A stretch of DNA of 64,000 nucleotides from Moniliella sp. 'wahieum' (taxonomy: Eukaryota). Positions 10,649 through 63,230 of the stretch are shown piece after piece; the first letter of the stretch is position 1, and the number at the start of each line of letters is the position of its first letter. Both the position numbers and the translations under genes were made by a program. The notes under the pieces are model-generated. The model made no database searches and was not told where the DNA came from. It was given only the letters and a program-made list of their open reading frames with translations. The stretch spans positions 124,001 through 188,000 of the forward strand of contig RSEE01000053.1 of the NCBI GenBank assembly GCA_003971905.1, given 5' to 3'.

Positions 10649-13095
10649 TCAGGTCCGCCGACGCTTGCCCCCCGCCCGCACGCCCGTGATTCCAAGTCCC
10701 ATCGCAGCCCCCAAAGTCTGCCCCTGGCCCGGGGGCGGCAGAACCGGGGCAGAGGGAAAATAAGGCAGCTGGCTGGAATGCGCACGAACATGCTTTGTCC
10801 CGCCCATCCCACCGCGAGGGGGGGGACTAAAGGAGGAACCGTACGTGTAACGGCGGCAGGCCGACCCCTGCTGTCCAGGTTGGGGTAAAGATGGGGCAGT
10901 AGGCGACAAGGTCGAGCTCGACACGCCTTCCTTGGCCTTGGTGTTCAAGCCATCAGGGTAGGTCCTTGGGACAGAAGAGGCGTCGAGGCAGATGCCGATG
11001 TGGACGCCGACAAGGTGGAGGAAAAATCGGGCGAGACCGCAGGCAGATCGAGCGCATCGTGATCGTGGCCTACCACTTCGGGCGCACGGAGCGGCACCGG
11101 GAGCGACACGCTCGGCAAGGCGCCCAGTTCCGCCTCCACATCTTGCAACAAATCCAGGTCGATCGACGGCTTGCATTCGTTCCAATCTTCCCTTTCATCT
11201 GACCGACGACCACGCAGGTGCCAGGCGGAGCCGGACGTTGTCCGCGCATGACCCGATCCCCGCCTTTCCATCGCGACCGCCGCACGCTTCTTGAGCCGTG
11301 ACACGGTTTCTCTCGCCTGGGTACTGAGTACCATCGGGTCCGACGTCTCCTCCTCGGTCCAATCCGGGAGCGTCGAGGTGACACCGCGGCCTCCTCCTCC
11401 ATCTCGCCCATCTCGTCCTCCAGTCCAAACCCGGCGCCTAGTCGCGTCCATCGCCGTTGGTCCGCTAGCCAAGACGGATCTTCGGCGGCAGCACTCACCC
11501 CAATGACCTCGGCAGGAAGACGGAAGCGGACATATTTGCCCTCTCTTATTGGCTGGACAGTGACGTCACCATCGTGCCGTCCAACATGGAGTGATCGGGA
11601 AGGACGACTGCAGGGGTTGGGCCGGAGGCAGTAAGGGCAAATGCCAGCTCGGGATCTTCAGCCAGACGATCGAGCATGGGCGTTGGGGTGGGAGATGTGC
11701 CATGGGGTGCAAGGCGCGGAGAATCGAAGGGCGAGACGAGGCCAAGGGCAGGGGCCATATGCGAGGGAAGAGGGGAAGCAAGTGGGGAAGAAGCTCTTGG
11801 TGTGCCGTGGAACGGTTCGGGGCGGAGACCAGTATCGGACTCGGTATCGGATGTGAGGGAAGCTGAATCAGATCGGTCGCTCGAGGAAGGAGGTGCTCCC
11901 AGAGCAACTTCTACCGAGCGCAATGCCTCATTTGCATCCACTGGCCCGCGTGCAGATATAGAAAGACGAACGCTCTGCGCGTGCCGGCGCCTCCGCTGGG
12001 GGAGTGGGCCGGGGAAAGATCGAGGGCATAAGGTCATACCGGTTGACACTGCAGGGAAAGAGTAGGCGAGCGACGATGCGATGATGGTGCGGGCGACAGT
12101 GAGGGCTCAGCGATCGTCGACTGGATAGCTCGGGCGATGGGTGGGGAGACAAGCCCAGGCCAGCTGGACTGAGTTGGGCGGTGTTGATTGGGGACAGTGC
12201 CGGCGAGACAGAGGCAGCTTGCTGTGGCCGCCTGGCCGACGGGGACGTGGAGGGGGAGCGGCCAAAAGAGAACTGAGCCAAACGGGACCGTTCGGCAACT
12301 GTACCACGTATTGGGCTCTGCTCAGGCCCGCCTTGTCGGGCAGACAAAGAAGACGCCCAGGTCGTCATCTGCCTGAGAATGAGAAGACGGTGTCAGTGAC
12401 ATATGCGAAGAAGAAGAGGGGAGGACACACCTCGGGTGCTTGGCGTGGAAAGGTCCAGCCGGTGAGGCCGACCGGGCGGGTAGGTGTAGGGGCGGTGACT
12501 GTAGGAAGGGCTGGTGGAGGAGGAGCAGAGACCGGGGCTGGGGTAGGCAGCCGATGCGATGCAGGTGGCATGGCGCGCCCGAGAGGCGGGGACGAGGGGG
12601 CGGAGGGAAGAGAGAGGGAAGGGGAGGGGGCAGGGGGCACAAGTGCGACGGGAGATGGTGGGCGGGGCTGGGAGGATGTGGCGGAATTGGAGGGGGCAGG
12701 GGAAATACAATGGCGGAGCGGGAGTGGGAGCGGGAGTGGGAGCGGCGATGGGGGTGGGGCGGGGGCGGGGAGAGACGCAGACGCAGATGCAGGCATGCTA
12801 GGCACCTCCAGTACGCGGGAGACGGGGAGGGCAAGGGGACGCAAGGCAGCCGCCGAGACGGAGGGGCGGAGGAGGCGAGGGAGGTGAGGGCGCCAGGGCT
12901 CAGAGTGTGGGCGCGGCGGTGGGCATCGAGGCGGGCGGCAGGAGAGGCGGGGAGGGAGGCGGGGGGGCGGAGGCGGGGGGGAGGCGGGGGGGGGGAGGCG
13001 GGGGGGGCAGAGGCGGAGGCGGTGTGGATGTGTCGCGGCCGGCGGGGACGCGGGCCGAGCGATGGCGGGGCAGAGGGCAGGACCTGGGTCGACAT
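10649..13095 (-). CDS. Hypothetical Ser/Pro-rich protein
   Basis: Chain of overlapping minus-strand ORFs from MSTQVLPSAPP to ..GGKRRRT*, with a probable intron ~12372-12430 (gtgtgt..ctgac..cag). No domain recognised. Confidence 0.5.
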
Positions 13096-13834: not shown

Positions 13835-13879
13835 CCGGTGACCGGTGACCGGTGACCGGTGACCGGTGACCGGTGACCG
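13835..13879. repeat. (CCGGTGA)6 palindromic heptamer array
   Basis: Six perfect tandem units read directly. Confidence 0.97.
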
Positions 13880-15427
13880 CCACCTGCATGCGGCGCCAAC
13901 AGCAGGGCTTGTTACATGTTACAGTTGTAACAGCGTGTAACCCCCGGCACAGCAACGCACCGCACCCCCACGTCGTATGGCATAGCACAGGTCCCGCCTT
14001 GGCCGGCAGACGACCTAGCTCAACTCCTGCTAGCTCTCGCTCGCAGCAGCCCGTCGCCATTCGGCGCGTGTGAGTCCAAGCTCGGCGATAGTGACTGCGT
14101 GCCTGAGGCAGGCCTATGCCATAGGTCTAAGACCCTATGGTCCAAGGCGTCCTAGAACCTAGGGCCCTCTAAGGCTGTGGAAATTGAATGTGACTGAGTG
14201 GGGTTCCATGGCTGGGCGCTGAACCGTTGAACTTCAACGTTCAGTTGAACGTTCAACAACGTTGAACAGTGGCTGGGAACAATACGACCCGGACGCCCTC
14301 GACGGCCTTGGTCCGTCTTGCCTTGACCTCGCCTGTTTCGTCTTAATCAATTGTCTCCCTTTTGTCGCCTTTGAAGTTTGGAGCTTGAGCGCTTCAAGAC
14401 TCTCCGCTTCCCTCACCGATGTTCTTGTTGTTTGCCTTGTCGGGTCCGCAACAGGACGGTACGCCCTGGTACGCCCCCCACAACGTTGCCACGCCGCAAT
14501 TTTCATACACCACAGGGCCACATGCACCATGCATCATGCATCGATCACAAGTCACTAGCTAGTCATGTGACTGTCGCAAATCACACCTCCCAGCTCCGTA
14601 CTCAGTCGAAAGGCACACTTGATCGACTAGAAGCTGGATGATCGGCTTGATCGACTTGATCGACGATCGGCCGACGGGCAGGTGGATGGCGCTGCGCCAG
14701 TGCTGTGCCATGGGCGCTGGGAACATGGAGCATGCGGAAACACCTGTAGAATCTCAGTGGACCTCAATCTCAGGGCGTTATTTATTGTTGGCTTGAAGCG
14801 AGGAGCTTGAAGAGCTTGAAGCTTGAGCTGAGCAGCTCAGCCACTGCCGAGGCGCTGAGGAGCCCTTGGCTGTCCCCTGCTGCTTGCTTGCCGCATCCGA
14901 TCCCACACAACCGCCACCACCCACGCATCCGCCTTTCTTCCTTCCTTCCAAGCCCAATCAAATTTCAAACGTGAATCAAAAACGCTGGTGTTACGTAATG
15001 TGCGCCCTAAGCAGCGTCCGACGTCTCAATTGCATTCACAACCACCAACTAATACTTCAAGAAGTGCCCCCAACCATTGCTTTCCGTGTGCATGTGATCT
15101 GTGACCAACAGCACTCGAACTGGAGTTGGATGCATCCAGGGCATCCCATGCCACACACCAGCTTCACGCAGTCACTATCTTCCGCCATGCATGTGCATGT
15201 GATGGCTCTCGATAACGGCGGCGTGGTTTTAGGACCTACTGCAGTTAGCGCTTATCCTGGCTTACCGCTTACTTCTCCACAGGCCTCGATAACACCCCGC
15301 CTTTTGTTTTTTTTTTTTTGCCCCAGCAGTCCCAGCCCCCGGCTCGAACCCACGTAGCGGGTAACTCAGATGGGGGAGCAGGCAGGCCAGAAGACAACAA
15401 AGAGCAGCGCAAAAATGTAAAAGAAAC

Positions 15428-15516
15428 CTCTCCGACCGGGAATCGAACCCGGGTCTCGTCCGAACGTCCGTCAACTGCATGACAGGGACGTGTCATAGCC
15501 ACTAAACTATCGGAGA
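15428..15516 (-). tRNA. tRNA-Asp(GTC) with 17-nt intron
   Basis: Acceptor TCTCCGA/TCGGAGA+G, anticodon arm CGTCC-CT GTC A[intron]C-GGACG, T-arm CCGGG-TTCGATT-CCCGG, downstream T-runs. Mature length 72 nt. Confidence 0.95.
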
Positions 15517-16769
15517 AGATTGGCATAGCACTTCATTCCCAGTCCCTGCCAAGTCAAGCGCAAAAAGTAACGAGCCGGCTGGTACATGGTAATGCGACTT
15601 CAAGGGAGACCGTCGCCGAGGTGCTGGTGACCGTTTTGGCCTAGCAGGCTATGCGTAGGGGTATATATATGATGTCCGGATGGATGGCGTGCATAAGAAA
15701 TGACATTATTGGATTGGGAAAGGAACGAGATTAACATGTGGGTCTTTAGCACACTTTCTTGTACGGAGCGAGATGGTGTCGTACCCGAGAAACACAAGAT
15801 GGATCTTGGTTATCTATATACAATGAACGACGGTGAGGGTGTCATACCTTGGCTGATCTCGCTCCTTTCCTGCTCTTCCGAATTCGCACCATGCCCTCTG
15901 CCCTTGCTTCTTCCCCACGAACGATTGCTACATGCCTTGAGCTAGGATTATATCTCAACTCTGGTTTCCCTCCCCTAATCCCGACTGCGGCAGGGGGTAT
16001 ATAGTGGATGTGGCTTCGGCCGTAATGTACTCGGACTATACCCCAACGCTCTTCCTCCCATCTGCGAGAAGCGGATGGACGCGTTCGACGCACCCTGCAT
16101 CGTCTTCTTGTACTATGATCCTTTCAGCATGCAAGACGCTCCGGTTCCAGGCCGTCAAGGAGACCAAGTTGGTCGCCGACAGTGGCTAAGCACTGGCGCC
16201 TGTTCCGGTGGGACCCCAGTGTAGAAGCCATACTAGTACTAGTGGTTTCTTTTTGGAGTACGACTGGAATAACCCCGGTGTCGGATGGGGGACAGCTGCC
16301 GCGAATATAAGAAGTGAGTCAAGCTAGTCAAGGAAATGCTCTTTTGGGGGGGGGGCGAAAAAGGAAACGAGGGCGGGGGAAAGTGCCAGGCGTATGTGGG
16401 TTCCGGAGTGATGGGGGACCAGGAGGATTTGGAGGATCATTGCAGGGATGGAGGTGGACCACGCTCCAAGGGGCTCTTGGATGCAAATAAGGAGACCAAG
16501 GTTGCGTACAGTTAAAACACGAAGGGGCTGGGCGACACCAGTGGGACCCCGGGAGAAGAATCTCTGTATCGACTATTGGAGCAAGCAAGTAATGTGCTAA
16601 GAAGACTGAAGTAAGGAGATCATCAGGGATATGATCAAAAGAGCCTTTCAATGCCCTGTGGTCTTGACGACACGCAGGATTGCCACAATTCGAAAAAGTT
16701 GCTAGTGTGTGATAATTGGACGGAACTTACTGAGAAGAGTATATCATTGGAGAAATACGGTCCATCCCT

Positions 16770-21957: not shown

Positions 21958-21997
21958 CTTCAAGCTTCAAGCTTCAAGCTTCAAGCTTCAAGCTTCA
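21958..21997. repeat. (CTTCAAG)5.7 palindromic heptamer array
   Basis: Read directly. Reverse-complement arrays at 22931-22954 and 23481-23527. Confidence 0.97.
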
Positions 21998-23480
21998 TGC
22001 CAACCTAAGGATGGAGTGAGGGTCATGCAGATCATGTCGATCATTCAGGACAATTATGATCTCAAGGACGCATACAGGCCATGTCGGTGGCCGGCCGAAA
22101 GGTCTAATAGGATGGCACCGTCACGGTTCTGCAACCTGCACACGTGATATAGTATAGTAGGGCTGACGCCCTGACGCGCGGCACCCGACTGACGGATCAA
22201 ACTTATTAGATCAGTGGTGCTGTGTTGTAGTATGAGTATGCGAAAAGGTGTTTGGACTACTACGGAGATGAAAACATGCACACGAGAGGTAAGACTGGTA
22301 AGATGTAAGATGGATTGGATGTGCAGGAAGATGCATCACGCATCATGACACAACGAGACATGCCATCAAGCTCACCATTAGCGCCATTGGATATTGATGG
22401 CTTGGAAAGAATCGAAGGGCCAGCAGGGTATACAAAGCCCTTCGGTAGGGATGCAAAAGCATATTCTCGCTTGCAAAGGCTGCGAAACCTAATGCGATGA
22501 TCATCTTATAGTAGACTTTTTTGTCGCCACACAGTAGGACCCTTTGTGAGTGTCTTCCTGTCACTCGTGCCTGCTGGTGGAGCAGAACGCGGTACTAATT
22601 CAGTCGCGCCATGGGTGATGCGCTGATTGAGGATCGGCGAGAGCGCAGGGCAATGGACAGAGAGAAAGCGCGTCAGTAAAAAACACTGTTGGGTGGTGTT
22701 CGGTCCTGTTCAACACATTCTACAGTGCTGGTTTTGTTCCATGTTGCGCGAGAGGGCGAAGCTGGGTTGGTGGAAGCTTTGTACATACCTACACATTTTA
22801 AAACGCGTTTGAAGTGTGTATCATCATGATGAGAAGTTGCCGTGAGGTTGTGCATCATTATCTCACAAGAAACCGCACTCAGTACTCACTCCCTATACTG
22901 ACTGAGAGGCTTGGCCCTTCATGCACTTCATGAAGCTTGAAGCTTGAAGCTTGACACAAGTCACGGTGGGGTGACATGGGAAGGGTGAAGAAAAGATACG
23001 TACATTGCTGTGCCGGTGTGGGCCATGTAGTAGCTCGCAGGGAGAAGGAGAGTGGCGGGTGAGGTGGGGGATCTTCGAGATGATCGATCGGGATGCGCGC
23101 GGGTGAGAGATGGATGGTGTTGGATGATCGATGCATCGTTGAGGATTGCGAGTGTGGGCGGAGACATGGACAAAAGGAGTGTTGTGTTGGTGGTGTTGGT
23201 TGGGACACGTCAGCATGCTTGGCTAGCTATAGGGCTGAGGGGCTGAGTATTGAATCCTGGAACTATTAACTGAGTACACTATAGTACGATGATCGACTGG
23301 GGCTGTAGCTGACTGCTCGATGATCGTATGCTGATCAAATTGATCAGCGTACACACAGCCCAAGTGGAGCAGGTAGGATTGCCTTGATTAGTCACTGGAG
23401 CACGTAACTAGGCTGAGCAAACAGAGGTGCTCAAGCCAGTCGTAGTCATGCTAGCTTGAAGCTAGCAGCAAATAAAGTAC

Positions 23481-23527
23481 CTTGAAGCTTGAAGCTTGAA
23501 GCTTGAAGCTTGAAGCTTGAAGCTTGA
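23481..23527. repeat. (CTTGAAG)6.7 palindromic heptamer array
   Basis: Read directly. Confidence 0.97.
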
Positions 23528-31994: not shown

Positions 31995-32027
<33 letters not shown>

Positions 32028-33564
32028 TTGCTGTCGTTGCAGTAGTTGCTGCTGCTGCTGCTGCTGTTGCTGCTGTTGCTGCTGTTGCTGCTGTTGCTGC
32101 TGTTGCTGCTGTTGCTGCTGTTGCTGCTGTTGCTGCTGTAGGAGACGTTGATCCTCCTGTTGCTGGTAATAGTATTGGTGAGATTGCATCTGCGTCGCCC
32201 CCTCGAACCGAACGTCAGAGCGCGTTTGGGGCTGCTGAGATCCATAACCTTGCTGCGCGGCAAGGCCTGCTGGCTGACCGTATTGCTGCTGGGACCGGTT
32301 GCCATACTGCAACTCCTCTTGGTACTGCTGCCCAGTGGTATTGGGCTCTTGATTTTGGTCGACGATCCGTCCTGAAGCATACTGCGCCTGCTGCTGGGCG
32401 TAGGCGTCGTGCTGCTGCTGCTGTTGGAGGGCGAGGTGCTGTTGAGACAAGGGCTGACCTTGCGAGAGGGGTTGCTCTGTTTGTTGGGCGCGAGCTCGTT
32501 CGTTGGCCTCCTCTGTTTCGCCCTCGCCTTCGGCCTCGGCATCTTCATCTTCCTCTTCCTCCTCCTCGTCGTAGTAGCCACCCTCTTCGTCATTTTCCGA
32601 CCATTCCTCATGATCACTCAGCTCGAGGACAGTCGAATTACCAAAAATGACGGCCGACTTGCGTCGGTTGGCCAAAATGGCAGGCGTCGCGCCATCGACG
32701 CGGCGAGACAGGGCCGAGCGCTTGCCCGACGAGGCAAGGATGTTGACGCGCTGCTCGCGCGTCTTTACCAGGTAGGACTTTTGGATGTTTTCCTGTACCT
32801 GCACCTGGTCCGCTTGCGTCGCTGAGGAGAGGTCCACATTGCGATGCTTGTTCAAGCGAGCCAGACGCTCAAAGGGGCTCTCGATATTTTCGGCAGGGAT
32901 GTAGCCCACCTCTTGGGTATGTAGGACGCGCACCAGCCACCTGGCCATCGAAGCGTTGTCGGTCAAACTCGAGCCAGCAACGGGGGCAAGGAAACGTACC
33001 AGTAGGAGTTGGAGTCATCGAGAAGAGTGAGACTGTTGCCCTTCTGGACAGTCGCCTGTCCTTCGACAGTGGCAATAAAGTTGTGCAGGGCATAGACCAG
33101 ATCAAAGTCGATGTTTTCGTCGGGGATGGAAGGAGAGGAAGACAGGTCGCCCTCGTCCTCGTCCTCCTCGCCATAGTCGTCCTCGTCCTCTTCCTCGTCG
33201 TATGCGTACCCGCCCGAACATACTGGCCTCCGCTCGTGCGCGTACTCACCCATGTATTCGCCGGGTACAAGGGACATGGCGGCGGCGGCGCCCTGCCCGC
33301 CAGGCCAGCGGCGGACGGGCCGAGGGAATCTGCGTAGTCGTCGGCCTCGTCGCTGAAGCCACTGTTTTCAGCGACATGGGGGTTGTACAGTTGGGCGCCC
33401 TGCGCGCCGGTGTTGAGGCCAGCATCGCCGACGTGGTGGACGTCGGCCTGGGCCTGGAGGGCAGCGAGCTTGGCGGCCTGGTTGCGTGCGGCGATCTGGG
33501 CGGCGGGGCGGCGGTTGTCGAGAGCGAGGCTGGCGGACTGGCCGCCAGTTGCAGCAGAGGCCAT
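28853..33564 (-). CDS. Tea4/Bud14-like polarity protein: SH3, polyQ tract, Ras-association-like domains
   Basis: SSSPSIPDENIDFDLVYALHNFIATVEGQA..LLDDSNSYW|WLVRVL..GYIPAENIESPFERLARLNKHRN and VLRVFAAANLETASTYKTVLLNETT. Intron ~32943-32999. Confidence 0.9.
31966..32137 (-). repeat. Coding polyglutamine tract with (CAG CAG CAA)n core
   Basis: (ctgctgttg)n on the + strand, translating to long Q runs in ORF 31428-32966. Confidence 0.95.
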
Positions 33565-42938: not shown

Positions 42939-43020
42939 CGAACGACGCAGGGGTCGAACCTGCAACCTCCTGATTACAACGAATTCGTAGTCAGACGCGC
43001 TACCATTGCGCCAGCCGTCC
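42939..43020 (-). tRNA. tRNA-Arg(ACG) with 10-nt intron
   Basis: Acceptor GGACGGC/GTCGTTC+G, D-arm GCGC-AATGGTA-GCGC, anticodon arm TCTGA-CT ACG A[ATTCGTTGTA]A-TCAGG, T-loop TTCGACC, downstream T-runs. Confidence 0.93.
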
Positions 43021-49631: not shown

Positions 49632-49652
49632 ACCGAGGCTCATAGCAATGCA

Positions 49653-51132
49653 TTAACGGTCCACCTCACCAAACACCAAGTCCATCGTCCAATGATGGCT
49701 ACCATGTCAGCGACATCGTGGTGACGCGAGATCATGTCGGCACCCGCAAGGTGGAGGAAACCGGGGGCACGGATGCGGCAGCGGTAAGGCCGGTTGGTCC
49801 CGTCCGAGACGAGGTAGACGCCCATCTCACCCTTGGGTGCCTCAATGGCCGCATACGTCTCGCCAGGGGGCACATTGAAGTTCTGGGAGAAGAACTTAAA
49901 GTGGTGAATCAGACTCTCCATGCTCTCCTTCATGTTGGCGCGGGGTGGAGCAGTGAGCTTGTGGTCGTCCACCTTGACCTGACCAGGGGGCATCTTGTTG
50001 ATACACTGCTCAATGATCCGTAGCGATTGCCGCATCTCCTCCACCCGGCAGAGGTAGCGATCAAAGCAGTCGCCATTCTTGCCGACCGGCACTTCGAAGT
50101 CCACCTCGTCAAACTTTTCGTACGGTTGACTCTTGCGAAGGTCCCATGGGATACCGCTTCCACGCAGCATGGCCCGCTGAAGCCATAGTTGAGGGCCTGG
50201 TCAGCCGTGACACGACCAATGCCCACCGTCCGCAATTGCCAGATACGGTTGCCCGTCACCACTTCCTCAACCTCATCAAGGCGCGAGCTAAACTGGGAGG
50301 CCCATACATGAATGTCATCCAGGAGACCGACCGGAAGGTCAAAAGCCACGCCGCCGGGGCGGAAGTAGGCTGCGTGCAGACGGGCACCACAGACACGCTC
50401 ATAAAACTCCATAAGCTTCTCACGTTCCTCGAAACCCCACAAGAAGGGCGTCACCCACGTCCATCACGTGGGACAGGACAGCCATCAAGTGGTTATTCAG
50501 TCGCGAGATTTCGGAGTACAGAGTGCGAATCCACTTGGCGCGCTCGGGAACCTCAATGTTGAGCAGCTTCTCCACCGCCCGGACGTAGCACAATTCGTTG
50601 GTCATGGCCGACGAGTAATCGAGACGGTCAAAGTAGGGCATGGCCTGCGTGTAGTTCTTGTACTCAATCAGCTTCTCTGTGCCGCGATGCAAGAGGCCCA
50701 CATGGGGGTCGGCACGAAGAATCTCTTCGCCATTGAGTTCGAGAATAAGACGCAGCACACCGTGAGCAGCAGGGTGCTGAGGGCCAAAGTTGATAGTAAA
50801 GTGGCGCATGTTGGCCTCTTTGCGCGAGCTCGCCTCCTTGTAGATCGCGTTCGACATCTCGATCGATGCACGCAGAACGATGCGGTCGCCATACGGGTCA
50901 TGCTCGACCTTGGTGGGGGTGGTGATTACGGGGATACGCTTGTCAAAAAACCCGTGCTCGAGGCGATGAGGGTTGGCGCTGCCGGGGGGGACCTCGTACT
51001 CGGGCAGATCCTCGGCATTCGCCGCGCGGACAGACGAGGCGAGGCCACGTGAGCCAAACAGACGCCGAAGGCAAGCGGGCCACGGGCAGGGGCAGCGGCA
51101 CGCAGGGCGCCGGCGAACACGTGGGGGCGCAT
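49653..51132 (-). CDS. NDUFS2: NADH:ubiquinone oxidoreductase 49 kDa subunit (complex I)
   Basis: [70 protein letters not shown], ends DLVFGEVDR*. No introns seen, frameshifts present. Confidence 0.97.
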
Positions 51133-52284
51133 GGGCAGCGGGGGCAAGACGGGTGGACGCGGTGGTGAGACGGAAGAGGACGGGATGCGGTGGCCTCGAC
51201 TGACCACTTCGGTTGGTTGGAGCGCTTGCCTGCCGCTCCCACTGCTCCCCACGCAGAGCAGACAGACCCACACATGAGCCCAAGCATCTGCTCTCACTGG
51301 CCCAGTGCCCCGGCTTAATAATCGCAATCCCCGCTCCGCCTGCCCAATTCCGCCCTGCCCCGCCTTTTCCATCCGCACAGAAATATGCCACAGCCGAGAG
51401 GTCACGGTTGTGCACCTCTTGTGGGGTCTTCTATTATAGCTCCCCACCACCACACTGGCTGGCGAGAGAAAGCGCGCAAACGGCACCAGGTTGAGGAAAC
51501 AGAGACTATGTTGGTCTGCGTTATGCTCACCTTTGGGGACATGCATAGTACCGCCTTCGGATACATCCTGTGCAATCCTACAAAGAACGGTGAAGAGATG
51601 TTTTTTCGTACACCCTCGCAGAGCACAGCTTTGATGAGGTGCTACAGGACTGCGTTGCAAGCATTACTCTCCTGGCTAATGTATATGACTTTTTACTTGG
51701 TCATGTGGATGATGTCATGGGCGGGGCCCGGATGGGAGCCCCACCGAAAGTTTAGGGGTGTTTCTCTTTGGAGAGAAGGACGGGCCACTCACGGTTGATG
51801 GAGCCTGAACGCTACTAGCAGATCCTAACGGAGCTAGAGACGAGGCGAGGCTCCTCGATCGGGGCGTCGGCTCGCGTGTCAAGGCTGTGTATGCGCCGGA
51901 ACGAGCAAGACTAGCGTGCCTCTGTAGTCCGTGGTCCTGAAGGGTTGGCCGAATGGTTGATGCACAGGCAACTAAAGGCAGGAGCACGTTACTTCGCGTT
52001 CGCATTACAAGACATCAGAAGTTGGATGTTCCTCAATGGACACATGTAGCATTTACCGGTCTCGTCGCCTCCGGCAGAGCGGGCAGGAACCATGAAAACA
52101 GTTCATATCAAGCTCGATTATAGCTGGCATCGAACTCGGCCTATCGAAAGCGAAGAGAACCGAAATGTGAAGTCAAAAGTCAAGGCATTGAAGAAAAAGA
52201 GAGGCAAGTTAACTTGGGTAGCAATGGTTCGTAAAGAAGAATCAAAAGAGCAGGAGACAGGGAGCATGGAAGACAAGGATAGAG

Positions 52285-53200
52285 AAGAGAGCAAATGTCA
52301 CGGGCGAAGACTGGCTGGCACGCCCAGGGGAGCGTACGCGCTCTCTTCATCTTCCTAATCCCGCCGCTACGGTTTGATTATCGGTTCCAGATCTGATCCG
52401 ATCCGATCTCAGGAGACGGAAGGCCGACTCACGGTAGTTTCGGGCTTGGGCTAGTTGGTGAATCCGAGCGGAGCTAGGGACGAGGAGAGGCCTTTGGTGG
52501 GGCGGCTGCATGTATGGCAAGGCTGCGTCTGCACCGGTTTGGACCGTAGTAACGTGTCTGAAGCCTCCGGGACTCAGGGACGGGAGGAGGCAGCGGCGTT
52601 CAAACACTGGCTTAACTGGGACTGGATATAGAGACTGGAAATCGACGCGGCCAGAGGAGTGCTCGCGCGACTAGACTGACAGATTGCTGGAGGACGAGGT
52701 CGGAGGAGAGTCGAGAGCTAACAAGAGGAGTCTGCCTGTACTGGATCAATTCGCTGGAAAACGGGCAGGAGTCGGACAGGATAGGCGGGAAAGGACGAGA
52801 ATGGAGGGTGGGGAAAAGGATCCCCACCGACCAGAGGTATAGGTTAAATCAAGGGGAAAACGGACACAAGAGGGGCTGTAGAAGAGAAGAAGAAACATCA
52901 AAAGGGGGGGGTTGATCGCCGCAGGCGCGACCGAAAAAGAGAAATAAGCCCCGGTGACGGGCGACGGACGCGACGACAAAGATACTGAATACTTGGTGGC
53001 CTTGTTTAGGCCAACCGACTTAGTCCTGGGTGGGGCGACTGCTGTCGCGCATACGCATGGCTACTCGGGCCACCGTACATTGTTCAACCAACCATCGTCA
53101 AACTTGGTTGGGCTTGGGGAGCGCGCTCCGCTGGGTTGTGCAGAGCAGGCGGGCGTTAGCTTGGCTCAGACCATCTTGCATCCGACGCGGCCCGTAACAC
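52285..53200 (+). mobile_element. Decayed dispersed repeat, copy 2 (inverted relative to 16770-17710)
   Basis: Best-conserved block 52412-52570 vs 17456-17625 (both contain ggtagtttcgggcttgggctagttg). Further matches at 52978-53104 vs 16867-17005. Confidence 0.75.
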
Positions 53201-54780
53201 AGTCGCCTCTTCTATACACTGATGAGAAGCCCCTCCTTCTTCCATAGCCCCACCCGGAACCGCCAATCAGCCCAAGCGTGTAACTACCGTGAGTCCACCT
53301 TAGGACTTGTAAGGGATTGTGGGGGGGGGGGGGCTGCTGGCGGCGCCCACTCGTGACATCAATAGACGTACCAGGCAGAGGAATCGGAAATGGGAGAGCA
53401 TGATCATTTACATAACTGTCAATCACGGTGATATGATGGGAATGAAGCCAGATTTGCGACTGTGATCAGGCCGAGTGTGTATTCATGGGGACCTGCATGC
53501 GTGCATGTGTGCTACAGCAGTGCATCAGGATGGTGGGCCCGGGTTTGTGAAGAATGGACAGCGGAGGTGCATCACAGTGTGCACAGCGTTAAGGGCAAAC
53601 ACGTTGGCTTGCGAGTCAGCTGATGAGCCCGTATTGGCAGGCGGTATTTATTATCGTCCTAACTCTCCTCGACGAGAGTTTGGACTCGTACCCCCCAACC
53701 ACCCACGCCCGAAGGAAAGAGAAGCGCTGCAGGCACCGATTTGCGCCCATGACTTCGGGGCGCACAGGCGAGGTCCTGGCGCCCACGGTGCATTCAACAA
53801 GTATATCGGGAAAAGAAAACGTGCCAATAAGTGTCGTTGTTCCTCTCGAATGTACGGGAGGAAGGGGCAGGAGTAGTGAGTCCATGCCGAGAAGCTCATT
53901 GTTGGGGCACAGGGAGGTCGTCTTTTTCTTTTAAGCGTGGGGATACGCCTTATGAGGGTAGGAGTGTGATACCTCACGGGCGACGGCGGACGGCCAAACC
54001 GGGGTGAGCCCAAGCCCCCCTTATTGCCACCATTTCCTATAGGTTGTGTCCATACACGTAAAGATCGGGTGACTATATTCTGACGTAGTTGCACATTGAA
54101 CAGGACATGCACTCCATGTATTGCATCAAAACGGTGAACATATTCCATTCGATGTGTGCGAACTATATCGAATCCCGTTCGTACGGCCGAGGTCGCCCAT
54201 ACGCTGCTTGTTGTTGTTGGTCTCTATGTACTTTTGGTCACATATAGTTTGGTTGATCCTACTCCCATTCTAATTTCTTCTTCGTTCTCAGCGTCTCGCC
54301 CTTTTCCTGTTTTTCCTCTTCGCTCCATGTCCTCTGCTCACGTTTCTTCCCTACCAGGATTGCTACGTTTCTCCGCCTTTTCCTCTCGACTCTGGTCTCC
54401 CTCGACTTAATCCCGACGACTGTGACACTTTTAATGTGATTACTTTTTCGCGTCTTTGGTCTTGTAATACACAGATGAGCTCTGGTTAATCTTCCGGATC
54501 TATCGTCTCGTTCTCTTCTTGCAAAGCCCTCTCCCCATCCATCCAGTTCCCCTCGTCAACTAGCAATAATGAACTGGACAACCATTTCGTTCCTGTCTAA
54601 GGATGGGAGGGTTATTGTCCCTTCCCTTGCTTCATATGTCTTTGCGTTATTCTTTGCCTTTTTATCTCTATTCTGTAACCATATCATTGACAGAGATTAA
54701 GGCTGGGACAAACAGACGCTTCTGCGCTTGAACCGACCCGTTCATCCGGCGTATGTATTGATTATTAGCGCCAACCCCGT

Positions 54781-56060
54781 TTAAGGAACCAGGGGGATCG
54801 CCAGGATATCAGGACCCTTTGGTGTCCGCCATCTGTTCCTATACACGAGGTAGCGAGTGTGGATATACGGATGAACCCGGTAGACATCCGAGCAGTAAAC
54901 CATCTCTCCATTGAGACTTTCAGTAGTTAATTCCTTCCACTTGCCAAGCGTCTTGCCCGCTGTCTTGGGGGCGTAGTATCCTCGTGTCGTCAAAACTAAA
55001 GGGAAAAACGGTTCGTGGGCGCGTCCCTGGTACTTCACGCACGGTATGTCCATATGGCTTCAGATCCTGCGCAGAACCAAGACAGGGTGTAGGGGCGAGG
55101 GAGAGAGCGTGTGGCTGCCTGCATGCAAAAATCAAAAGGAAGGAAACGAGAAGCAGCGCGCGTAAGTCTCGACAAGACCCCACAAAGGGCTCGAGCAGCT
55201 CCACAGGCGTTCCTGCGCTGCCGTTATGCCACGGTTAACGCCACTGTGGTAAGCGCACCACTGAGACGGAATCTTAACTGAAGGACAAGCATTACTTTCA
55301 TTGCAGTATAACCAACGCAAGCCGTAAATTCGCAAGAGTACTAATAGTATGGATAGAGAAGTCGAGCGTCAAGGGAGGAAAAGGTGGAAGGGAAACCAAT
55401 GTGTATGCCAGCGTTGGTTGGTAGCGATTCAGAGGTGGTTGGTAGGACGAAACAGGCCAGTAGTCTTCGATATGGGAAACAGAGAGGATGGTCGATGAGG
55501 AACACTGTTGGCAAGGCTTTAACCGGGCCGGTAATGAAGCAGTGTAGATATCAGAGCGGGTATGCACGGTATGTAGTAGCTTTGCTGAGAAGTAAAAAGA
55601 CTATATAATAAGCCGCATCAGCCTGTGCTTTCAAGTTGCTGACAGAGTGCACAATGGGGACAGCAGACTGAAGGAGTCTTCTGCAAGACGGGGCAAAATG
55701 GGTATTAAGCATCGTATCATGAGACCATGCGATCATGGCTATAGCTGCCGACGAAGAGGTACGCAACGATGGATAAGTTGCCTGTGGTGATTGCCCGGTG
55801 ATTAGTGAATGTCACTAGGGAATCTCACTCGCCTAAAACAGGACTGGCGCGTGTTTGCAGGGTAGTTCTATTACCAAAAATGTGGGGCGCTGTTGTTTAT
55901 GTCCGGAGATAACCCAACCGCCCCGGAACATAGTGGAGGGATCTGCCCAAACCTGTCGTATAGCCTACTACTTCGCCTTCCCACAGCGAACCTTCTAGAA
56001 CCACTACATACGGCCAACAGGGTCTCACTAATATACGCCCGACCCCGTCGGATACACAAA
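54781..56060 (-). mobile_element. Heavily decayed REL-endonuclease non-LTR retrotransposon (CRE/Cnl1/MoTeR-like)
   Basis: Ordered remnants SLPARL, LVSLPPFPPLTL, C..C...W..H..V, VELLEPFVGSCRDLRA, VKYQGRAHEPFFPLVLTTRG..TLGKWKE. Confidence 0.55.
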
Positions 56061-56149
56061 ACGTAGTTGCCACGCGAGGCTACATTTTGAGTAAGTAGAC
56101 CTCCTCTCCGCTACCTCCGTTCGCCGTCAATGGTGTTTGAGCTTTTGAA

Positions 56150-59100
56150 GAATGAAGCTTGAAGCTAACGCACCCCTAACCTACGGGTCGGGCCTGAGTT
56201 TTCACCTAATGCACATTGCCATGAGCCACGGGGGTTGTGAAACGGAGAAAGGTACTGGGCGAGGTTTTGGAACGATATAGCGACTCACATGTCACAGAGG
56301 CCTTAAGCATGATGCATGAAAGGGGGGGGGGGGGCGTATGGGCGAGTGAGTACTGAGTGGTGATGAAGAAATGAATGAGACGGGGCGCTTCTTCCAGGAA
56401 ATGTCGTCCCGAATCTACAGAATTGCCACACTGCAGCTAGGGGATAGGATACAAGCCTACTGTAGCTACTAACTGTGGTACTTCGAAAGGTGACCGGTGA
56501 CAGTCATATGGGTCGGAGCGTTACGCGTTACCGGCGTTACCATCCCCGTCTCCTTGCCGTACTACTGTGGCAACTATTGGCGTGCCTTTTCTTGCGAACA
56601 CGCAGTACCTTGCCAGCCTGGTTATGATCGATGATCGATGAGTTCGATGAGTACGTATACTGAGTCATGATGCATGATGTATGATGCATGACACCGTGTT
56701 CGGGCAGATTCGGGCAGAACATTGAAAGTTGACCGGTGACCGGTGACCCATGAGAATCCGTATTGAATTCGATGAACGATGTCGATGAATGTATGACGTT
56801 TGAAGCTTCGTTGGACGTTGAGTACGTTGAATATTGAATGAACTGAGTACTGACTGAAGCACCAGAATGAGAGGGTGGCAAAAAGGCGAAGCTGGCCCGA
56901 CCGAGCTTGGCGCTGCAGGGCGCTGCTTGGTGCCTGGCGGCCTAGCCGAGCTGACTTCCACAGTGTGCGGCAGTCAGCGCTGACGGTCAGCGGTCAGTAC
57001 GTCAGTTCTCAGAGGCGGTTGCCGTCGCTCTTTCGCGGCCTTTGGCGGCTGCGCCGCTCCGTCAGGGTATCAATCAGTTCACGATCACAACATCACGATC
57101 GTTGAGAACATACAGGGTCCATCGGACCCACGTCAGCGCGTCAGCTCCCGCTTGCTCCCGCCTGCTCCCGCGCGACGTCTATAATAGGATCCTTTTGATG
57201 CGGTCCAGGTGTATTGGCGTGCACCGCTTTCGCCGTGAACGTACGCACTCCAGCGCTCAGATTGAGCATGATCGATGTTCTCAATGCCTCTGATCGTTAG
57301 TCGATGATATGTGCTATGAGGCTTATGATGCTTGTGATGCTTGTGATGCTTGTGATGCGTGATGCATAACCGGCATAACCGGCATAACCGGCATACTCGG
57401 CATAATCGGCATAACGGTGGCGATAGCATATCCAGGCAACAACCTCGGCCGCATAACAAATGGCATGGATTTATTCAGCGGTGTTTCCTCCGCTTTAGGT
57501 TCAACGTTCAGGCCCTCCCGGGCGTGGTAGCCAGTTAGCTCCTTAAGGGGGAGGTGCTAACGTCCTCTCTTTCCTGGTTCTTCTGCATGTACCTGCAGTC
57601 TAAATCCTTCCAACCCCCATTCACGTGCGAATGCTCGCTATAAACATTAAACGTTAAACGTCATTCGGGCTGATCCTAAACCCTGTTGAGCCCCTGTCCC
57701 ACCTTATTCCCGTCGTCTGTTCGACCCCGCCCGAAGGTGGGCAATCTGAGACTCTTATTGCAGCAAAATTACTAATGGAAGGGTCCAGCGCGAAAGGACG
57801 GCGCGGGTTCCAGATTCGCTGTCCGCGGGTGTGAAGCCATGCATGCACCAACATGTATGGACACCAGGCACCAAAAGAAATGCTTAATCGATGTACTCGA
57901 TGAGCTCAACCCCCCCCGCCGTGTGCCTGAATTGACCTCGCTTCTTCCGACCTGTGTGGCAACATTCCAAGACAAAACATAATTGTGGTTGCCTCAGCGC
58001 CTCAGCCATCAGTACTCAGTTCCAGCCAGTTCCAGCCACACTGCCCCACCTTGCCTCAAGCCCCCCTCTCATTCACGCATCTGCAGAAAAAACTGTTGTG
58101 CAATCGTCAAATTTGTTAAATCTCGATCTCTACCAATTGTAATCATACGAGATTGACAGAGCTTAAGGCTGGGACGCGGGAGAAGAAACGCTGCACCTAA
58201 TAAACCGACCTCCTGATCCATTAAATCGGGGTCGATCGTGTGCCACTTAATAAGCACGGCCAGGTTGCGACGGTGACCGGCTTCACCGATCGCGGTGCAC
58301 TTCCGGCATCATTTGCATCATTAATCATTAGCCCCGAGGCTCCGCGGACTCCGAGGGGTGCTGATGAGCGTGTACCAGCGTAAGCTAACGACTAGTAGCC
58401 TTGTCCGGTAGCCCTCGTTCTGCTTCCTACCACCAACGCCTATCTCTCGCCCGCAATTCATCGCCTACGCTGCTGTCCTAAACGCTTCAGCATCCATTGC
58501 GTTCTCCACAGCCGAGTGGACCATGACGTCGCTACAAGTCTGCATTGGTCAGAAAAAATTGCCCAGCGCTTTGATAATACTCTGCACAGTGTATAAGTCG
58601 CGCGATACGAGTGTGAGGCCACAAGTAAAGGGAAGAAGCAAAGGATGCGCTGATAGGGGAAAGGAGGACACAATCGGCGAAGAACAGTGAGAAGATTTGC
58701 CTGATTAGCTACGAGGACCGTGACACAGGGTTTTGACAGTCCTTATCCTGGCATTTATTGCAACGCTTCCTACTGTCATCGCCAAGTAGTCCAGCCCAGT
58801 TCAACCCCGCAACCATAACCACCCTTCTCCCCCCCCTCTCCACCCAATGGCCGTCCCATGCTGCGCAATGCATCTCATCCTGCACAGCAGCGGCGCCTCC
58901 AGCTCCGACTTTCCTTCCCTCTTCTATTGCCCGCTTTTTACCCTGCTCTGCCCCGTACGCACGTTTTCATGGGACGTGTGGGTTTCCATGTAACCTTTGT
59001 AGTGCAACAGGGAGGGAAGAAAGGGGATCGAGCCGGAAAGAGATAATCAACCCTGTGCGCGCAAGAGGCGGAACAATGAGGCCTGTGGCAGGAGAAGTGC

Positions 59101-62100
59101 AAGGAGAAGTGACTAGTGACGGGTTTGGCGCCAAGAGCAGTACAAGAGCAGCACACACAGGTCGGTTCCCATCAGCTGCATCCGCCTCATTGATCGGTAA
59201 ACGTTGTGACGCGGGAGTGTTACACATCAGGTATCGATTGATTGAATATTGATATTGACCGGTGACCGATGACCGGTGACCACCGATATCCCAAATCCCT
59301 TCTCAGATTCATATACCAGTGCTCAGCGCTCAGCCGCTCAGCGCCCATCATGCATCATGCATAGTTGCAACTAAAACCCAAGAGTGTTTGTGCTCGACGG
59401 TTGAGACCCTAGCGTGAGGGCATGAGCACATGTGGCGCTTGGCGCAGGGCGCAGCATTCTGGCCACAATGCCACCCGTCCCAGATCCTCAATCACCGAAT
59501 ACCGATCACCGGGCACACTTCAAGCTTCAGCGCTTCAGCGTGCCAGACGTCGTATGTGTCGCATCCGAAGGTCTGTATGCTCGGCAAAAAGCGTCAATAG
59601 CTGACCCGCGGTCCCACAGAATGTGTTTCGTCGGAGTGCGGACGCATCGAGTATGGCGAATGTCTGAACGCACTGAACTCGAACGGGTAGATTTTAGAAC
59701 GCCTTAATTCTGCTGGGCGTGCTCTCATGCACATGGGCTTCGGCCTCACCGGTCACCCAATGCGCGCGAAGCGCGGAGCCTCTCAGCCTGTGGCCTGAGC
59801 GCCTGAGCCCGTTACGCGTTACGGTTGTCTGCAATAGTCATCAAATAAATTGAGTCCCATGATGCATGACATGTGACATGTGACATGCGACAAGACATGG
59901 GCAAAGAGGAAGAGGGGCGAGCGGGTGCGATGCATCTCAATCCCACAGGCGGCAGGCTCAAGTCATGCATCAGTACTCAGTACCGGTCAGCGCGTCCCCA
60001 TCAATATGACAGTGACTAGTGACGCGTGACGCGTGACGCGTGACTGACTCGTGGAATGCTGCGTATGAATATGACACGCGACATGTTGCAAACATTCATA
60101 CTTGCAGCATGCGGCGTGTGGCACACAATCAGGTACAAATCCGGGAGGCTTGGAGCTTGGATTGAAGCTTGAAGTCAAGCTTCACAATGGTCACTGGTCG
60201 TATGTCGCTGTCACCGGTCACCGGTCACTAGTCACTAGTCCCTTGCCCTTGTCATTAATCATTAAATATTGATCGATGGTCGATGATCGCCGATCCCATG
60301 TTTCTCGATCCCATGTATCTGACACCATGCACCACGCACCATACCTTAGGCCTTAGGAGGCCTCCTCTTAGGCCTTACGCTAAAGCGTTATATGCCATCA
60401 TGTAAACTAGTTACTCGTTCCTCGCAGTGTTGCCGGCACGCGCTAAACGTTAGCGTTACCGGTTACCGGTTATCCGTCGGTTCCCAGGGGACACCGGGCG
60501 AAACCGGGTCGTCCTGCTTCTTTAAGCTTTAAGCTTTAAGCCCGTAAACGTTAAACACCAGCATCCGGTCCACCATATCTTCTGAGATCCTCAGATCTAA
60601 GTCTGAGATCTGACATGCTGACAGGGTACCCTGAACTTCAGGCCCTGAGGCCTGAGGTCTGGGGTATGATATACGATGCATGGTGAATGATGCAAGCGAC
60701 CCCCTGAGGGAGGCCTGAGCCTCAGGCCTGGGGAGCTTAGCGCTTAGCCCTTAGGCCTTACTGGAGCTTCAGATGTGAGCCTCACAGCTGAGCCGCGTCA
60801 ACGCCAACGCATCAATGCATCAGCCACGCTATTCATCATGCACCACCAACCCCTCCCCCCCCCCAGCGCACCCTGCATCATTTGCGCCACAGTCTCAATG
60901 TTCGTTGAACTTGAAGCTTGAAGCTTGAGATCTGAGAGCGTGAGGCTTGAAGCTTGAGTCAGGCCACAGAGCCTCAGCTTCCTCCGCAAGATCATCGATC
61001 ACAGCGCTGCAGGCCCATCGACTAGCCGTAGCAGACCAAAACCACCATCATGCATCATGCTCGCCCAGACTACTAGACAGGGAAAATGAGAGGATCGCTG
61101 CCATTCGCCTTTCTGGCATTCTAGCGTTGCTCCATACCGGTCTTACACCACTTCTCTCCATGCATCTATTCTCTTGGTACCTGGCCTACTTCGCATATAC
61201 CCGCTCTTTCATTTCATGCCGAGAGATGTGAAGCATAATGCATGTAATGTGTGACACGTGACGGATGATCGAGGACATGGACAGGACCAAGGCTTGTGAC
61301 ATGTGACATGCGACATTTCGCGCGTGATATATGGCACGCCATGCACGCCATGCACCACGCTTGACATGGACACGTGACAAAAGTGACGTCGTGACCTGGT
61401 GGCACGTGTCACATGTTAGCCTTTCAAGCTTCAAGCTTCAAGCTTCAAGCTTCAAGCTTCACACGTTCACGCCTAACTTGCTCCATGTATCGAGTATCAG
61501 CTACCCCACCCCCGTCCTCAGGTATCTGATCTCAGAGCGCGGAGAATCCGCGCCCACGAACACCCAAGAGATTAATCGTCGTCGATATATACACGTTAGT
61601 AAAAACGCGGAGGCCACATGCATTCGTCAAACTCGTCACGCGTCACCCCATGTCACGAACTGCATATCATACACGGCCGTCACGTAATGCGTAACGATGC
61701 ATGGAATGCATAATGGAGGAGGCACGAGATACTGAGATCTGTGGTACCACGGAATCTAATATGTCCCCCGTGGGATGCTCCCGTGCAGAAGCCGGCCTTT
61801 CAGGTTATCGAGAGGATATGTGCTGCAGAATCAAGTCAACGTTTAACGTTTAACGATCTACTCTTCTTGCTCACCATCTGGCTCAATTATCGATTCCCGC
61901 CGGGTTAAATTTAAACGTTAAGGCTTTTAAATTTTAAGGCTTATGGCTTAAGCCGCTTAAGCTTAAGCCGCTTAAGGCGTAAGGCGTAAGCGTAAGGCCT
62001 AATTGGCACTCGGCCTAACCGGCCTAACCGGCCTAACCAGTAACCTAGTAACCCGGCCGAACACGGCCTAACATGGAACAGGGCCTAAGGTTTAACAGGG

Positions 62101-63230
62101 CTTAACACGTGAAGCATCGTGCGTATCACCCGTCAGATATCAGATGATCGATGAGGGCGCTGCGGCGCTCAGGCGCGCTGAGGCTCAGCCCTGGGCTGAG
62201 CGCCCTGAGCCTCAGGTTCTCTGGTTGAACCGCTCAGACGTACCCAGGCGCTCAGGCTCAGGTCTTAGCCTCCACGTGGAATATGCATACGGGCCTCTAC
62301 GTTGACTAACATCGTTATGTTGCGTCAGTAGGGTTGTGTTGTCGGGTAATTGATTTAGTCGCTTAAATATTCAACGCTAAGTTCCAAGTCACTAGTCACT
62401 GTAATTAGCCACTAGTACTGTGTGGCAGTGGAAGGCGAGCAAGGCAGGGGAAAAGATGGTGTGGATGCGATCAGGAGGAAGGCAGCCCGGAGGCCCAACA
62501 GGAAGGGGCGGAACGGAGGCGAAAGGCGAAAGGGCCGCTCGCACATGGAGCTAACAATAGTCACTAGTAGTCACTCTCGTCCACACGTTTCAAACATTCA
62601 CACAATCCCCATCCTGCTCCGTGAGGCTGGCATCGATCGCGTCCCCGGATCATCGATCATCGACCATCGACCATCCGCCTCACATCATCACACGACCCTA
62701 GCCAACCCTCGGACATGCACCATGCACCATGCATCATGCATCATGCATCATGCGTGGTCTGTGGCCTGCCGCATGAGTGATGTGGCTGGTGACTAGGGAC
62801 TAGGGACTAGTGACTTCATCTGCATCATGCACATCATGCATCCGATACCATCCAGCACGTGTCGCCGGTCACACATCATCTGTGGGCTCTACACTTGGGT
62901 GCTAACATCGTCGGCGGCGGAGCAATGACGGGCAGCAGGCCGCTGGCTACCAGCTCCAAACAGCTGGAGCTGGAGCTGAAGCTAGCTCAGTACTGAGACT
63001 CAGTTGAGTGTGCTCAGCCGCTGACGCTGGAAACTAGCTTGAATTGCGGCAACGCTGAGCGTCAGTGGAACGTTGAACCTGAATGTGCAAGCGAAAAAGC
63101 TTCAGCGCAAAAGCCCAGATGTCTTCGAAGCCTGAACAAGCGCAAGCCTCCCCGATCATCTCGATCTCCCGGCTTTAGATCTTCAGAGCTTCATCCTTCA
63201 AGCTTCAAGCTTCGAACATCAAGCTTCGAG
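56150..63230. repeat. Gene-free tract dense in (TNA + palindrome)n micro-arrays
   Basis: Dozens of short arrays, e.g. 56625, 56730, 59860, 59963, 60013, 60211, 60456, 60522, 61423-61461 (TTCAAGC)5.6, 61836, 61905, 62734, 63196. No recognisable ORF. Confidence 0.9.

Follow-up and report, generated by a model that had tools for sequence, protein, structure and literature searches.

Locus and repeat field

The 64-kb stretch of DNA analyzed here, referred to throughout as the window, carries a family of short tandem arrays that look unrelated and obey a single rule. The window has a G+C content of 58% and contains intron-containing eukaryotic genes for condensin Cnd2, MatE, RhoGAP, Fe/Mn-SOD, PQ-loop and complex I 49-kDa subunit proteins. 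Comparison of one exon of the complex I gene with known proteins detected 76-81% identity to those of Phakopsora, Sporisorium, Puccinia, Exobasidium, Mixia and Microbotryum, with a top match of 91%; as this exon resembles basidiomycete proteins, the source of the DNA is a basidiomycete fungus, in line with the fungal origin assumed in the original prediction. The original prediction for this window was that many microsatellites share the form (TNA-xyy'x')n, in which a TNA "hinge" alternates with a 4-bp palindromic core. All of the arrays that it had named were found, either exactly where they had been placed or a few bases away. The pattern is genuine and sharply defined: a mutational signature from which a family of palindromic microsatellites arises. 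The exon, the main field and the principal arrays were as follows.

49643-50200, minus strand: exon of the complex I 49-kDa subunit gene, from protein comparison
56150..63230: dense field of TNA plus 4-bp-palindrome units, with 76 hinge-core-hinge instances having the same N
13835..13879: perfect array (CCGGTGA)6.4
21958..21997: perfect array (TCAAGCT)5.7, left boundary extended by exactly CT
22931..22954: array (TGAAGCT)3.4, with a hinge at both ends
23481..23527: perfect array (TGAAGCT)6.7
61423..61461: perfect array (TCAAGCT)5.6
60522, 60456, 62734, 56625 and 59963-59979: further arrays with cores AGCT, CCGG, TGCA, TCGA and GTAC, respectively
59323, 60646, 60604 and 61836: further arrays with cores GCGC, GGCC, GATC and ACGT, respectively
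60252, 61905 and 56828: further arrays with cores TTAA, AATT and ATAT, respectively

Specificity of the hinge and core

Dinucleotide-preserving shuffles (n = 200 for the region 56150-63230) were used as controls. In this region, the 76 palindromic tetramers flanked by TNA hinges with the same N compared to a shuffle mean of 0.45 and a shuffle maximum of 3, and other hinges with a palindromic core were at chance level (ANT, 0; CNG, 1; GNC, 2). A genome-wide count of TNA-N4-TNA against shuffles and other hinges had been put forward with the original prediction, and the outcome in this region was in agreement with it. When hinges of 2 to 5 nt and cores of 2 to 8 nt were combined across the whole window, enrichment was detected for a 3-nt hinge beginning with T and a 4-bp palindrome (107 versus 2.2). 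No enrichment was observed window-wide for 2-, 6- or 8-bp palindromic cores or for hinges of 2 or 4 nt; entries with a 5-nt hinge and a 2-bp palindrome were enriched, but these were rotated views of the same arrays.

The hinge requires A as its third base (156 instances, versus 14 for the other three bases combined), and in 99 of 113 first copies the initial T was there beforehand. No clear consensus was detected in the flanks apart from a weak preference for G at -1 (25/56). The arrays can equally be viewed as tandem 6-bp palindromes, A-xyy'x'-T, separated by one base, and palindromic hexamers of the A...T type numbered 140 (24.9 expected), with the C...G, G...C and T...A types at chance or lower. 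Hinge usage (TGA, 89; TCA, 78; TTA, 31; TAA, 13) matched the expectation that TGA and TCA would predominate over TTA and TAA. Fifteen of the 16 palindromic tetramers served as a core between two hinges, and TATA, which had been reported as missing, occurred only in single TNA.TATA units without a second hinge. The number of runs per core ranged from 2 to 15, a broadly similar frequency across the 15 cores.

Perfect tandem arrays of at least 2 copies had a period of 7 (n = 75), 8 (n = 10) or 9 (n = 10), and the longest perfect period-7 array extended to 6.7 copies. Reverse-complement symmetry about one odd center was observed in 43 of the 75 period-7 arrays, compared to an expectation of ∼11%, and in 0 of 10 arrays at each of the other two periods. 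The hinge of the symmetric arrays was TNA in 42 instances (TCA, 18; TGA, 15; TTA, 8; TAA, 1) and CTG in one. Plain 7-bp duplication of non-palindromic targets centered on TNA was rejected as a candidate, as TNA was not raised among the non-symmetric arrays (9/32).

A separate set of 10-bp perfect palindromes, TNA-pal4-TN'A, in which the base of the second hinge is complemented, was observed nine times against a rough estimate of ∼3 expected. These could be a minor inverted product of the same process or could have arisen by chance.

5688, 10192, 14246, 24681, 46048, 56974, 61905, 61957 and 62987: the nine TNA-pal4-TN'A palindromes

The elementary event

Hinges and cores in the same phase were chained into runs, which gave 87 runs containing 124 cores. 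Singletons of 1.4 to 1.7 copies dominated, and 69 of the 87 runs had a single core. Among the 55 single-core runs with the same N, the core continued for at least 2 nt past a terminal hinge in 49 (∼6.7 expected). Since runs usually continue two bases into the core beyond the hinge, each change converts TNAxy -> TNAxy·y'x'·TNAxy, a 5-bp direct repeat whose two copies enclose its final two bases in reverse-complement form.

The boundaries of these 55 runs were classified by the extent of core sequence beyond the two terminal hinges: 17 were (2,0) or (0,2), 9 were (2,2), 3 were (0,0) and none was (1,1). The (2,2) class, in which the target is the complete palindrome y'x'TNAxy, was in excess of the one to two cases expected. 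In (x,0) runs the next-but-one, outer base agreed in 5 of 17 cases, which is the chance level, and these are therefore true 12-mers; that they were mutated 14-mers was rejected for this reason. A 5-bp duplication that is symmetric (x'TNAx) and has a filler of 2 nt predicts (1,1) boundaries and was rejected because these were lacking.

The same rule emerged from a general scan for a word W of length L followed by the reverse complement of its last p bases and by W again. With L = 5 and p = 2, there were 199 hits compared to 10.2 in shuffled sequence, and W had the form T.A.. in 142 of these. The base N was identical on both sides of the core in 107 of 124 cases, and 5 of 6 pairs of neighboring different cores retained it. 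None of the five mixed runs had more than two core types, and at 7 of their 10 ends the outer core corresponded to its own palindromized flank. The following single events and mixed runs illustrate these properties.

56285..56296, plus strand: single elementary event TCACA + TG + TCACA (W5, then its final 2 nt reverse-complemented, then W5 again)
56347..56358, plus strand: single elementary event TGAGT + AC + TGAGT
59860..59885: mixed run TGA.TGCA TGA.CATG TGA.CATG TGA+ca; palindromizing the left flank (ca) gives the left core, and palindromizing the right flank (ca) gives the right core
60013..60043: mixed run TGA.CTAG, TGA.CGCG three times, TGA; hinge phase and N are constant across the cores
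60211..60240: mixed run TCA.CCGG twice, TCA.CTAG, TCA, ctag
60912..60937: mixed run TGA.AGCT twice, TGA.GATC, TGA+ga; each outer core agrees with its own flank

The (TGACATG) array and its 3' flank were present twice in the dense field, at 59865-59892 and 61288-61315, with 89% identity, which suggests a small segmental duplication or a recurrent event.

These data bear on an origin as ordinary microsatellites, in which random 7-bp tandem duplications would be followed by slippage favoring hairpin-forming, self-complementary units. Arrays of up to 6.7 perfect copies are consistent with this explanation, as is the folding of array single strands, which was far better than that of shuffles (-14.6 versus -2.4 kcal/mol for the array at 23481..23527 and -18.1 versus -8.9 kcal/mol in a second comparison). 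Slippage very likely contributes to array growth, because the arrays fold so strongly as single strands. As the origin of the units, however, it leaves unexplained the exclusivity of T-N-A (CNG or GNC hinges would fold better yet are at chance), the predominance of singletons (69/87 runs having one core), the boundaries at exactly +2 nt, and the phase and N shared by neighboring arrays with different cores. The original prediction had held that simple slippage does not account for a fixed hinge with a free palindromic core; the hinge, singleton and boundary statistics uphold this, and the hinge and boundary statistics contradict slippage as the origin of the units, an explanation to which we attach very little probability.

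Limit on the length of the duplication

The spacing between identical hinges was enriched at 7 nt (112 versus 6.0), 8 nt (23 versus 5.6), 9 nt (31 versus 5.7) and 13 nt (25 versus 5.9) and was weakly raised at 6 nt (15 versus 6.1). No enrichment was detected at spacings of 3 to 5 nt or 10 to 12 nt, with a spacing of 3 nt being observed 7 times versus 6.6 expected. The length of the direct repeat was then examined with the position of TNA fixed relative to the palindromic junction, by counting pairs of W(L) copies separated by the final 2 nt of W(L) in reverse-complement form. There were 142 hits at 66 loci for L = 5 (shuffles, 0.38), 14 hits at 13 loci for L = 6 (shuffles, 0.08) and 17 hits at 12 loci for L = 7 (shuffles, 0.04), followed by a single hit for L = 8 and none for L = 9 or L = 10. 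Period-8 and period-9 cases obeyed the same rule, with one or two extra upstream bases duplicated. Apart from the one L = 8 locus, the duplicated segment was confined to nnTNAnn, 7 bp symmetric about N. The segment duplicated directly is TNA plus as many as two bases to either side, and the event is specific for the hinge, templated by the flank and limited to 7 bp.

Two shorter duplications were rejected as candidates. A 5-bp duplication of TNAxy with two P nucleotides, as in a Transib-like system, fits period 7, but in the period-8 and period-9 cases the upstream bases q or pq are also duplicated. A 3-bp duplication of TNA with hairpins at the target-site duplication (TSD) tip predicts TNATN'A palindromes and spacings of 3 and 6 nt, for which the counts were those given above (7 versus 6.6 and 15 versus 6.1). 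Examples of the longer variants and of compound palindromes were as follows.

57365..57389, plus strand: period-9 variant CATAACC + GG + CATAACC (the whole nnTNAnn and 2 palindromic nt), part of (GCATAACCG)5.8
57131..57145, plus strand: period-8 variant CGTCAGC + G + CGTCAGC, with the alternative reading GTCAGC + GC + GTCAGC
56648-56663 and 60619-60634: compound palindromes between TGA hinges 13 bp apart, one with GTAC and GTATAC filler and one an 8-bp GGGTACCC palindrome

Distribution and decay of the units

Within 56150-63230, 133 of 522 TNA sites were hinges and 778 of 7,081 bases (11%) lay in perfect 12-mers. When up to 2 violations were allowed, coverage reached as much as 41% of the segment from 60 to 62 kb, compared to a background of ∼2%. 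Smaller clusters were present at 13.2-15.3 kb and 21.9-24.7 kb, and the dense field had not ended by position 64000, the last of the window. No events were detected in four control stretches with a total of 736 TNA sites, and the DNA next to the dense field provided an internal control.

51800..56149: adjacent non-coding internal control, 0 hinges among 208 TNA sites, degenerate matches at chance

The numbers of 12-mers with 0, 1 and 2 violations were 94, 68 and 166, respectively, versus 0.1, 1.2 and 14.8 in shuffles. As all three classes were in excess, events of all ages are present, and the process is regional, long-running and probably still active.

A sequencing or assembly artifact is the least probable of the explanations considered, and nothing in the sequence speaks in its favor. 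The precise grammar is tied to local flanks and includes degenerate older copies, the pattern is absent from neighboring DNA of similar composition, and templated palindromes are not a product of base-calling errors.

The clustering in certain intergenic regions and the absence from others would suit selected cis-elements, such as binding sites for dimeric or structure-specific proteins or promoter cruciform signals, and TGA and TTA presumably resemble bZIP half-sites. This explanation is nevertheless very unlikely given that 15 cores are in use at broadly similar frequency, that a core dictated by its own flank bears the mark of mutation and not of a code for recognition, that the hinges are direct repeats and not inverted half-sites, and that decayed copies are plentiful. 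The suggestion in the original prediction of a structural (hairpin or cruciform) protein-binding signal is consequently unsupported, any core being used and each being dictated by its own flank. The units are best explained as mutational scars and not as functional motifs.

Hairpin-type excision scars as a candidate mechanism

A loop-free inverted copy beside its template is the signature of P nucleotides, which derive from a closed hairpin end nicked a few bases off its tip, as in V(D)J recombination and hAT excision (see also PMC5499845 and PMC4561436). Opened hairpin ends that yield P nucleotides account for the observed pattern better than fold-back synthesis at a 3' end that finishes in TNA, the process first proposed for these arrays. 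The element of that proposal which stood was the templating of the core by the two adjacent bases. The model as it was formulated is unsupported because the period-8 and period-9 variants and the near-complete stop at 7 duplicated bases are not predicted and because it needs a snap-back of 1 to 3 nt, which is sterically implausible. A TNA-targeting enzyme, mentioned originally as an alternative, is a good candidate.

Our preferred reading, which we put forward tentatively, is that the units may be scars left at excision of a cut-and-paste element whose target duplication is 7 bp long and centered on TNA, with the hairpins on the flanks being opened 2 nt from the tip. That such an element exists is inferred, as are hairpin formation, opening at 2 nt and end joining. 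A cut-and-paste element or transposase-like enzyme would integrate with a 7-bp stagger centered on TNA, producing a 7-bp TSD so that both flanks read pqTNAxy. Excision would leave blunt covalent hairpins on both flanks, as it does in hAT, Transib/RAG and MULE systems. Host nucleases would nick each hairpin 2 nt off the tip, so that the duplex would stop exactly at TNA and 3' overhangs of 4 nt (xyy'x' and q'p'pq) would protrude, each self-complementary. End joining that retained one overhang and lost the other would generate pqTNA-xyy'x'-TNAxy, with a period of 7 and a (0,2) or (2,0) boundary, and if the second overhang were only partly trimmed, the period-8 and period-9 variants would result. 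Where the target already reads y'x'TNAxy, the overhangs would be cohesive and an excess of (2,2) cases would therefore arise. Each new hinge would also be a new target, and re-targeting could grow single-core arrays: internal hinges would lie in a perfectly palindromic context with two cohesive overhangs and, as this is always so, arrays would keep gaining the same core. Replication slippage would lengthen the arrays as well, aided by their hairpin-forming capacity.

Individual components of this scheme have precedents. The consulted part of PMC5499845 describes flank hairpins that are opened by host enzymes such as Artemis and then give nonhomologous end-joining footprints in hAT, Transib, RAG and Muta1 systems. 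In Ac/Ds footprints the flanking DNA is copied palindromically, and mPing, a PIF/Harbinger element, tolerates any middle base in its TNA target (TTA, TAA, TCA or TGA), according to excerpts of PMC4561436. An extract of PMC4455052 implies that Repbase lists hAT families with a 7-bp TSD.

Several observations weigh against an excised transposon. In the 64 kb there were no credible elements with terminal inverted repeats (TIRs) flanked by identical 3-bp or 7-bp (TNA or nnTNAnn) repeats, and no transposase domains were detected in the 126 (18 + 108) open reading frames (ORFs) of at least 110 amino acids in the window. A 7-bp TNA-centered duplication combined with blunt flank hairpins is not known to us from any superfamily. 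The 1-nt-offset hairpin of a Hermes-type hAT element predicts a different spacer, and some of the period-9 cases can be read as having either 2+0 or 1+1 palindromic bases. The density of 133 hinges among 522 TNA sites within 7 kb is extreme for transposon scars. The product is also highly uniform, unlike natural excision sites in rice, of which only 8 among 94 were perfect and the majority carried fillers or deletions (excerpt of PMC4423477).

Comparison with known systems

The closest known kind of product is the hairpin-type footprint of hAT elements such as Ac/Ds, of Transib/RAG and of MULEs. As in such footprints, the target duplication is kept as a short direct repeat (5, 6 and 7 bp at 66, 13 and 12 loci, respectively). 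The units differ from hairpin-type footprints in having a single dominant product, in being iterated into arrays and in saturating kilobases, and they differ from hairpin-type transposon systems in that neither element copies with TIRs nor a transposase gene was found in the 64-kb window. The palindrome is even-centered, unlike that expected from the 1-nt-offset hairpin of Hermes. An 8-bp hAT duplication with a 1-nt-offset hairpin was rejected as a candidate, as the spacer comp(b8)comp(b7) and A-N-T center that it predicts when worked by hand were not seen. As in the excerpted accounts of PMC5499845 and PMC4561436, the junction palindrome is templated by the flank and not by the element. The duplication here is 7 bp at maximum and TNA-centered, unlike the TSDs of hAT (8 bp), Transib (5 bp) and MULE (8-10 bp) elements, for which the lengths are from an excerpt of PMC5499845 together with general knowledge.

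A second comparison is with PIF/Harbinger elements of the Tourist/mPing type, which, in the portion of PMC4561436 seen, likewise target TNA and leave its middle base free (TGA, TCA, TTA or TAA in the present arrays). That source describes excision as mostly precise via complementary TSD overhangs; in contrast, every event here has a 4-bp palindromic core. No ORF of the DDE_Tnp_4 type was detected among the window ORFs of at least 110 amino acids. PIF/Harbinger elements have a 3-bp TSD and excise precisely, by way of 5' overhangs that are complementary. Their duplication differs from the 5 to 7 bp duplicated here, and a TNA..TNA spacing of 3 was at chance (7 versus 6.6).

The Tc1 footprint, TA-CATG-TA, contains a filler derived from the inverted ends of the element, which is family specific and independent of the flank. 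Footprints of the Tc1/mariner type resemble the units only in shape, with a duplicated target, a 4-bp palindrome and a second copy of the target, and are unlike them in that 15 cores were found here, the core matched the flank in 49 of 55 runs and a (0,0) boundary was present in 3 of 55. An analogous remnant of element ends with a TNA duplication was rejected on the same grounds, since the core equals the flank and (0,0), the predicted boundary, was rare. Hairpin-prone microsatellites such as CTG/CAG are similar to the arrays in having head-to-tail copies and single strands that fold into imperfect hairpins, and slippage probably adds or removes whole heptamer units. Slippage microsatellites have no unit rule, with boundaries in any phase, unlike the TNA-specific and templated birth of units with a fixed length of 7 and boundaries that peak at +2 nt. 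Palindromic repeats of Fusarium mitochondria (PMC7218506) are mitochondrial, larger elements tied to indels, and the part of that report consulted notes neither a TNA hinge nor a 7-bp rule.

Possible formation without a transposon, and significance

Scars might also form without a transposon, if TNA were nicked, or broken with a stagger, by a nuclease (of the host or domesticated) or a topoisomerase, or if such a lesion arose at a repair intermediate. Fold-back or template-switch synthesis would reverse-copy two flanking bases and realign on T, with slippage to follow. This is essentially the primary model of the original prediction, and we regard it as a serious rival, though less probable than excision scars. 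It accounts equally well for the flank-templated core, the fixed TNA and the direct copy of N, the excess of pre-existing y'x'T microhomology in the (2,2) class would aid realignment, and neither an element nor a transposase was found in the window. The high local density and uniform product suit a recurrent endogenous process better than sporadic visits by a transposon, judging by the rice data in the excerpt of PMC4423477. However, a TNA-specific nuclease is without a known example, and a ruler of exactly 2 copied bases is needed, as cores of the 2-, 6- and 8-bp classes are not enriched. Snap-back of a polymerase with a loop of 0 to 3 nt is sterically implausible, and the period-8 and period-9 variants and the near-complete stop at nnTNAnn are left unpredicted. 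Generic repair should, in addition, have marked the non-coding DNA at 51800-56149, in which there were 0 events at 208 TNA sites.

The signature is most likely a new version of hairpin-type excision or break scars, possibly made by an undescribed enzyme or element. It is possible, although less likely than not, that the process is a previously undescribed, lineage-specific one, with either a TNA-specific hairpin-forming nuclease (endogenous or domesticated) or an unclassified transposon superfamily with 7-bp nnTNAnn duplications repeatedly making breaks in chosen intergenic regions, each healed by a deterministic 7-bp palindromic insertion. A full-text literature search found no description of heptamer arrays of TNA and a palindromic tetramer, and a search with the array strings themselves returned only two matches, both unrelated.

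If the excision-scar reading were true, one rule (a TNA target, a 7-bp duplication and two hairpin-derived bases) would account for dozens of different-looking microsatellites, a class born from break-repair scars and not from slippage. It would also imply that a basidiomycete lineage of which few members have been sampled contains a hairpin-type transposon or nuclease that is very active and cuts with an unusual target geometry, and the scars would be a historical map of cut positions. With an undescribed process, one rule would likewise give rise to an entire class of palindromic microsatellites, and the process would build a sizeable share of the non-coding DNA (up to the 41% of 60-62 kb reached with 2 or fewer violations). 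The rule is sharp enough for genome-wide and between-strain counts, from which scar rate, target choice and array growth can be measured.

Other features of the window

Rfam and tRNA scans of the window detected two tRNAs only, with no match within the arrays. The tRNA-Met gene directly adjoins the end of the heptamer cluster at 13.2-15.3 kb, and the tRNA-Arg gene has no cluster close by.

15427-15517, minus strand: tRNA-Met (CAT), from Rfam and ARAGORN
42939-43020, minus strand: tRNA-Arg (ACG), from Rfam and ARAGORN

An inverted-repeat unit of ∼880 bp at 52420-53301, inside the event-free stretch from 51.8 to 56.1 kb, has 75-nt arms that are 73% complementary and 732 nt apart. A matching flanking duplication was not found for this unit, which may be a decayed foldback or miniature inverted-repeat transposable element (MITE)-like element. 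A 24-nt non-coding direct repeat without an Rfam match was present at 54686-54709 and 58152-58175, with 96% identity and a spacing of 3.5 kb. Other low-complexity features were a G-rich minisatellite at 12928-13022 with units of 11-25 nt and a GAGGCGGGG-type consensus, a poly-G tract at 56322-56335 and a poly-C tract at 1339-1359. The repeat (TGCTGCTGT)15 at 32002-32139, which is not related to the heptamer grammar, lies within a long minus-strand open frame and is probably a coding low-complexity repeat.

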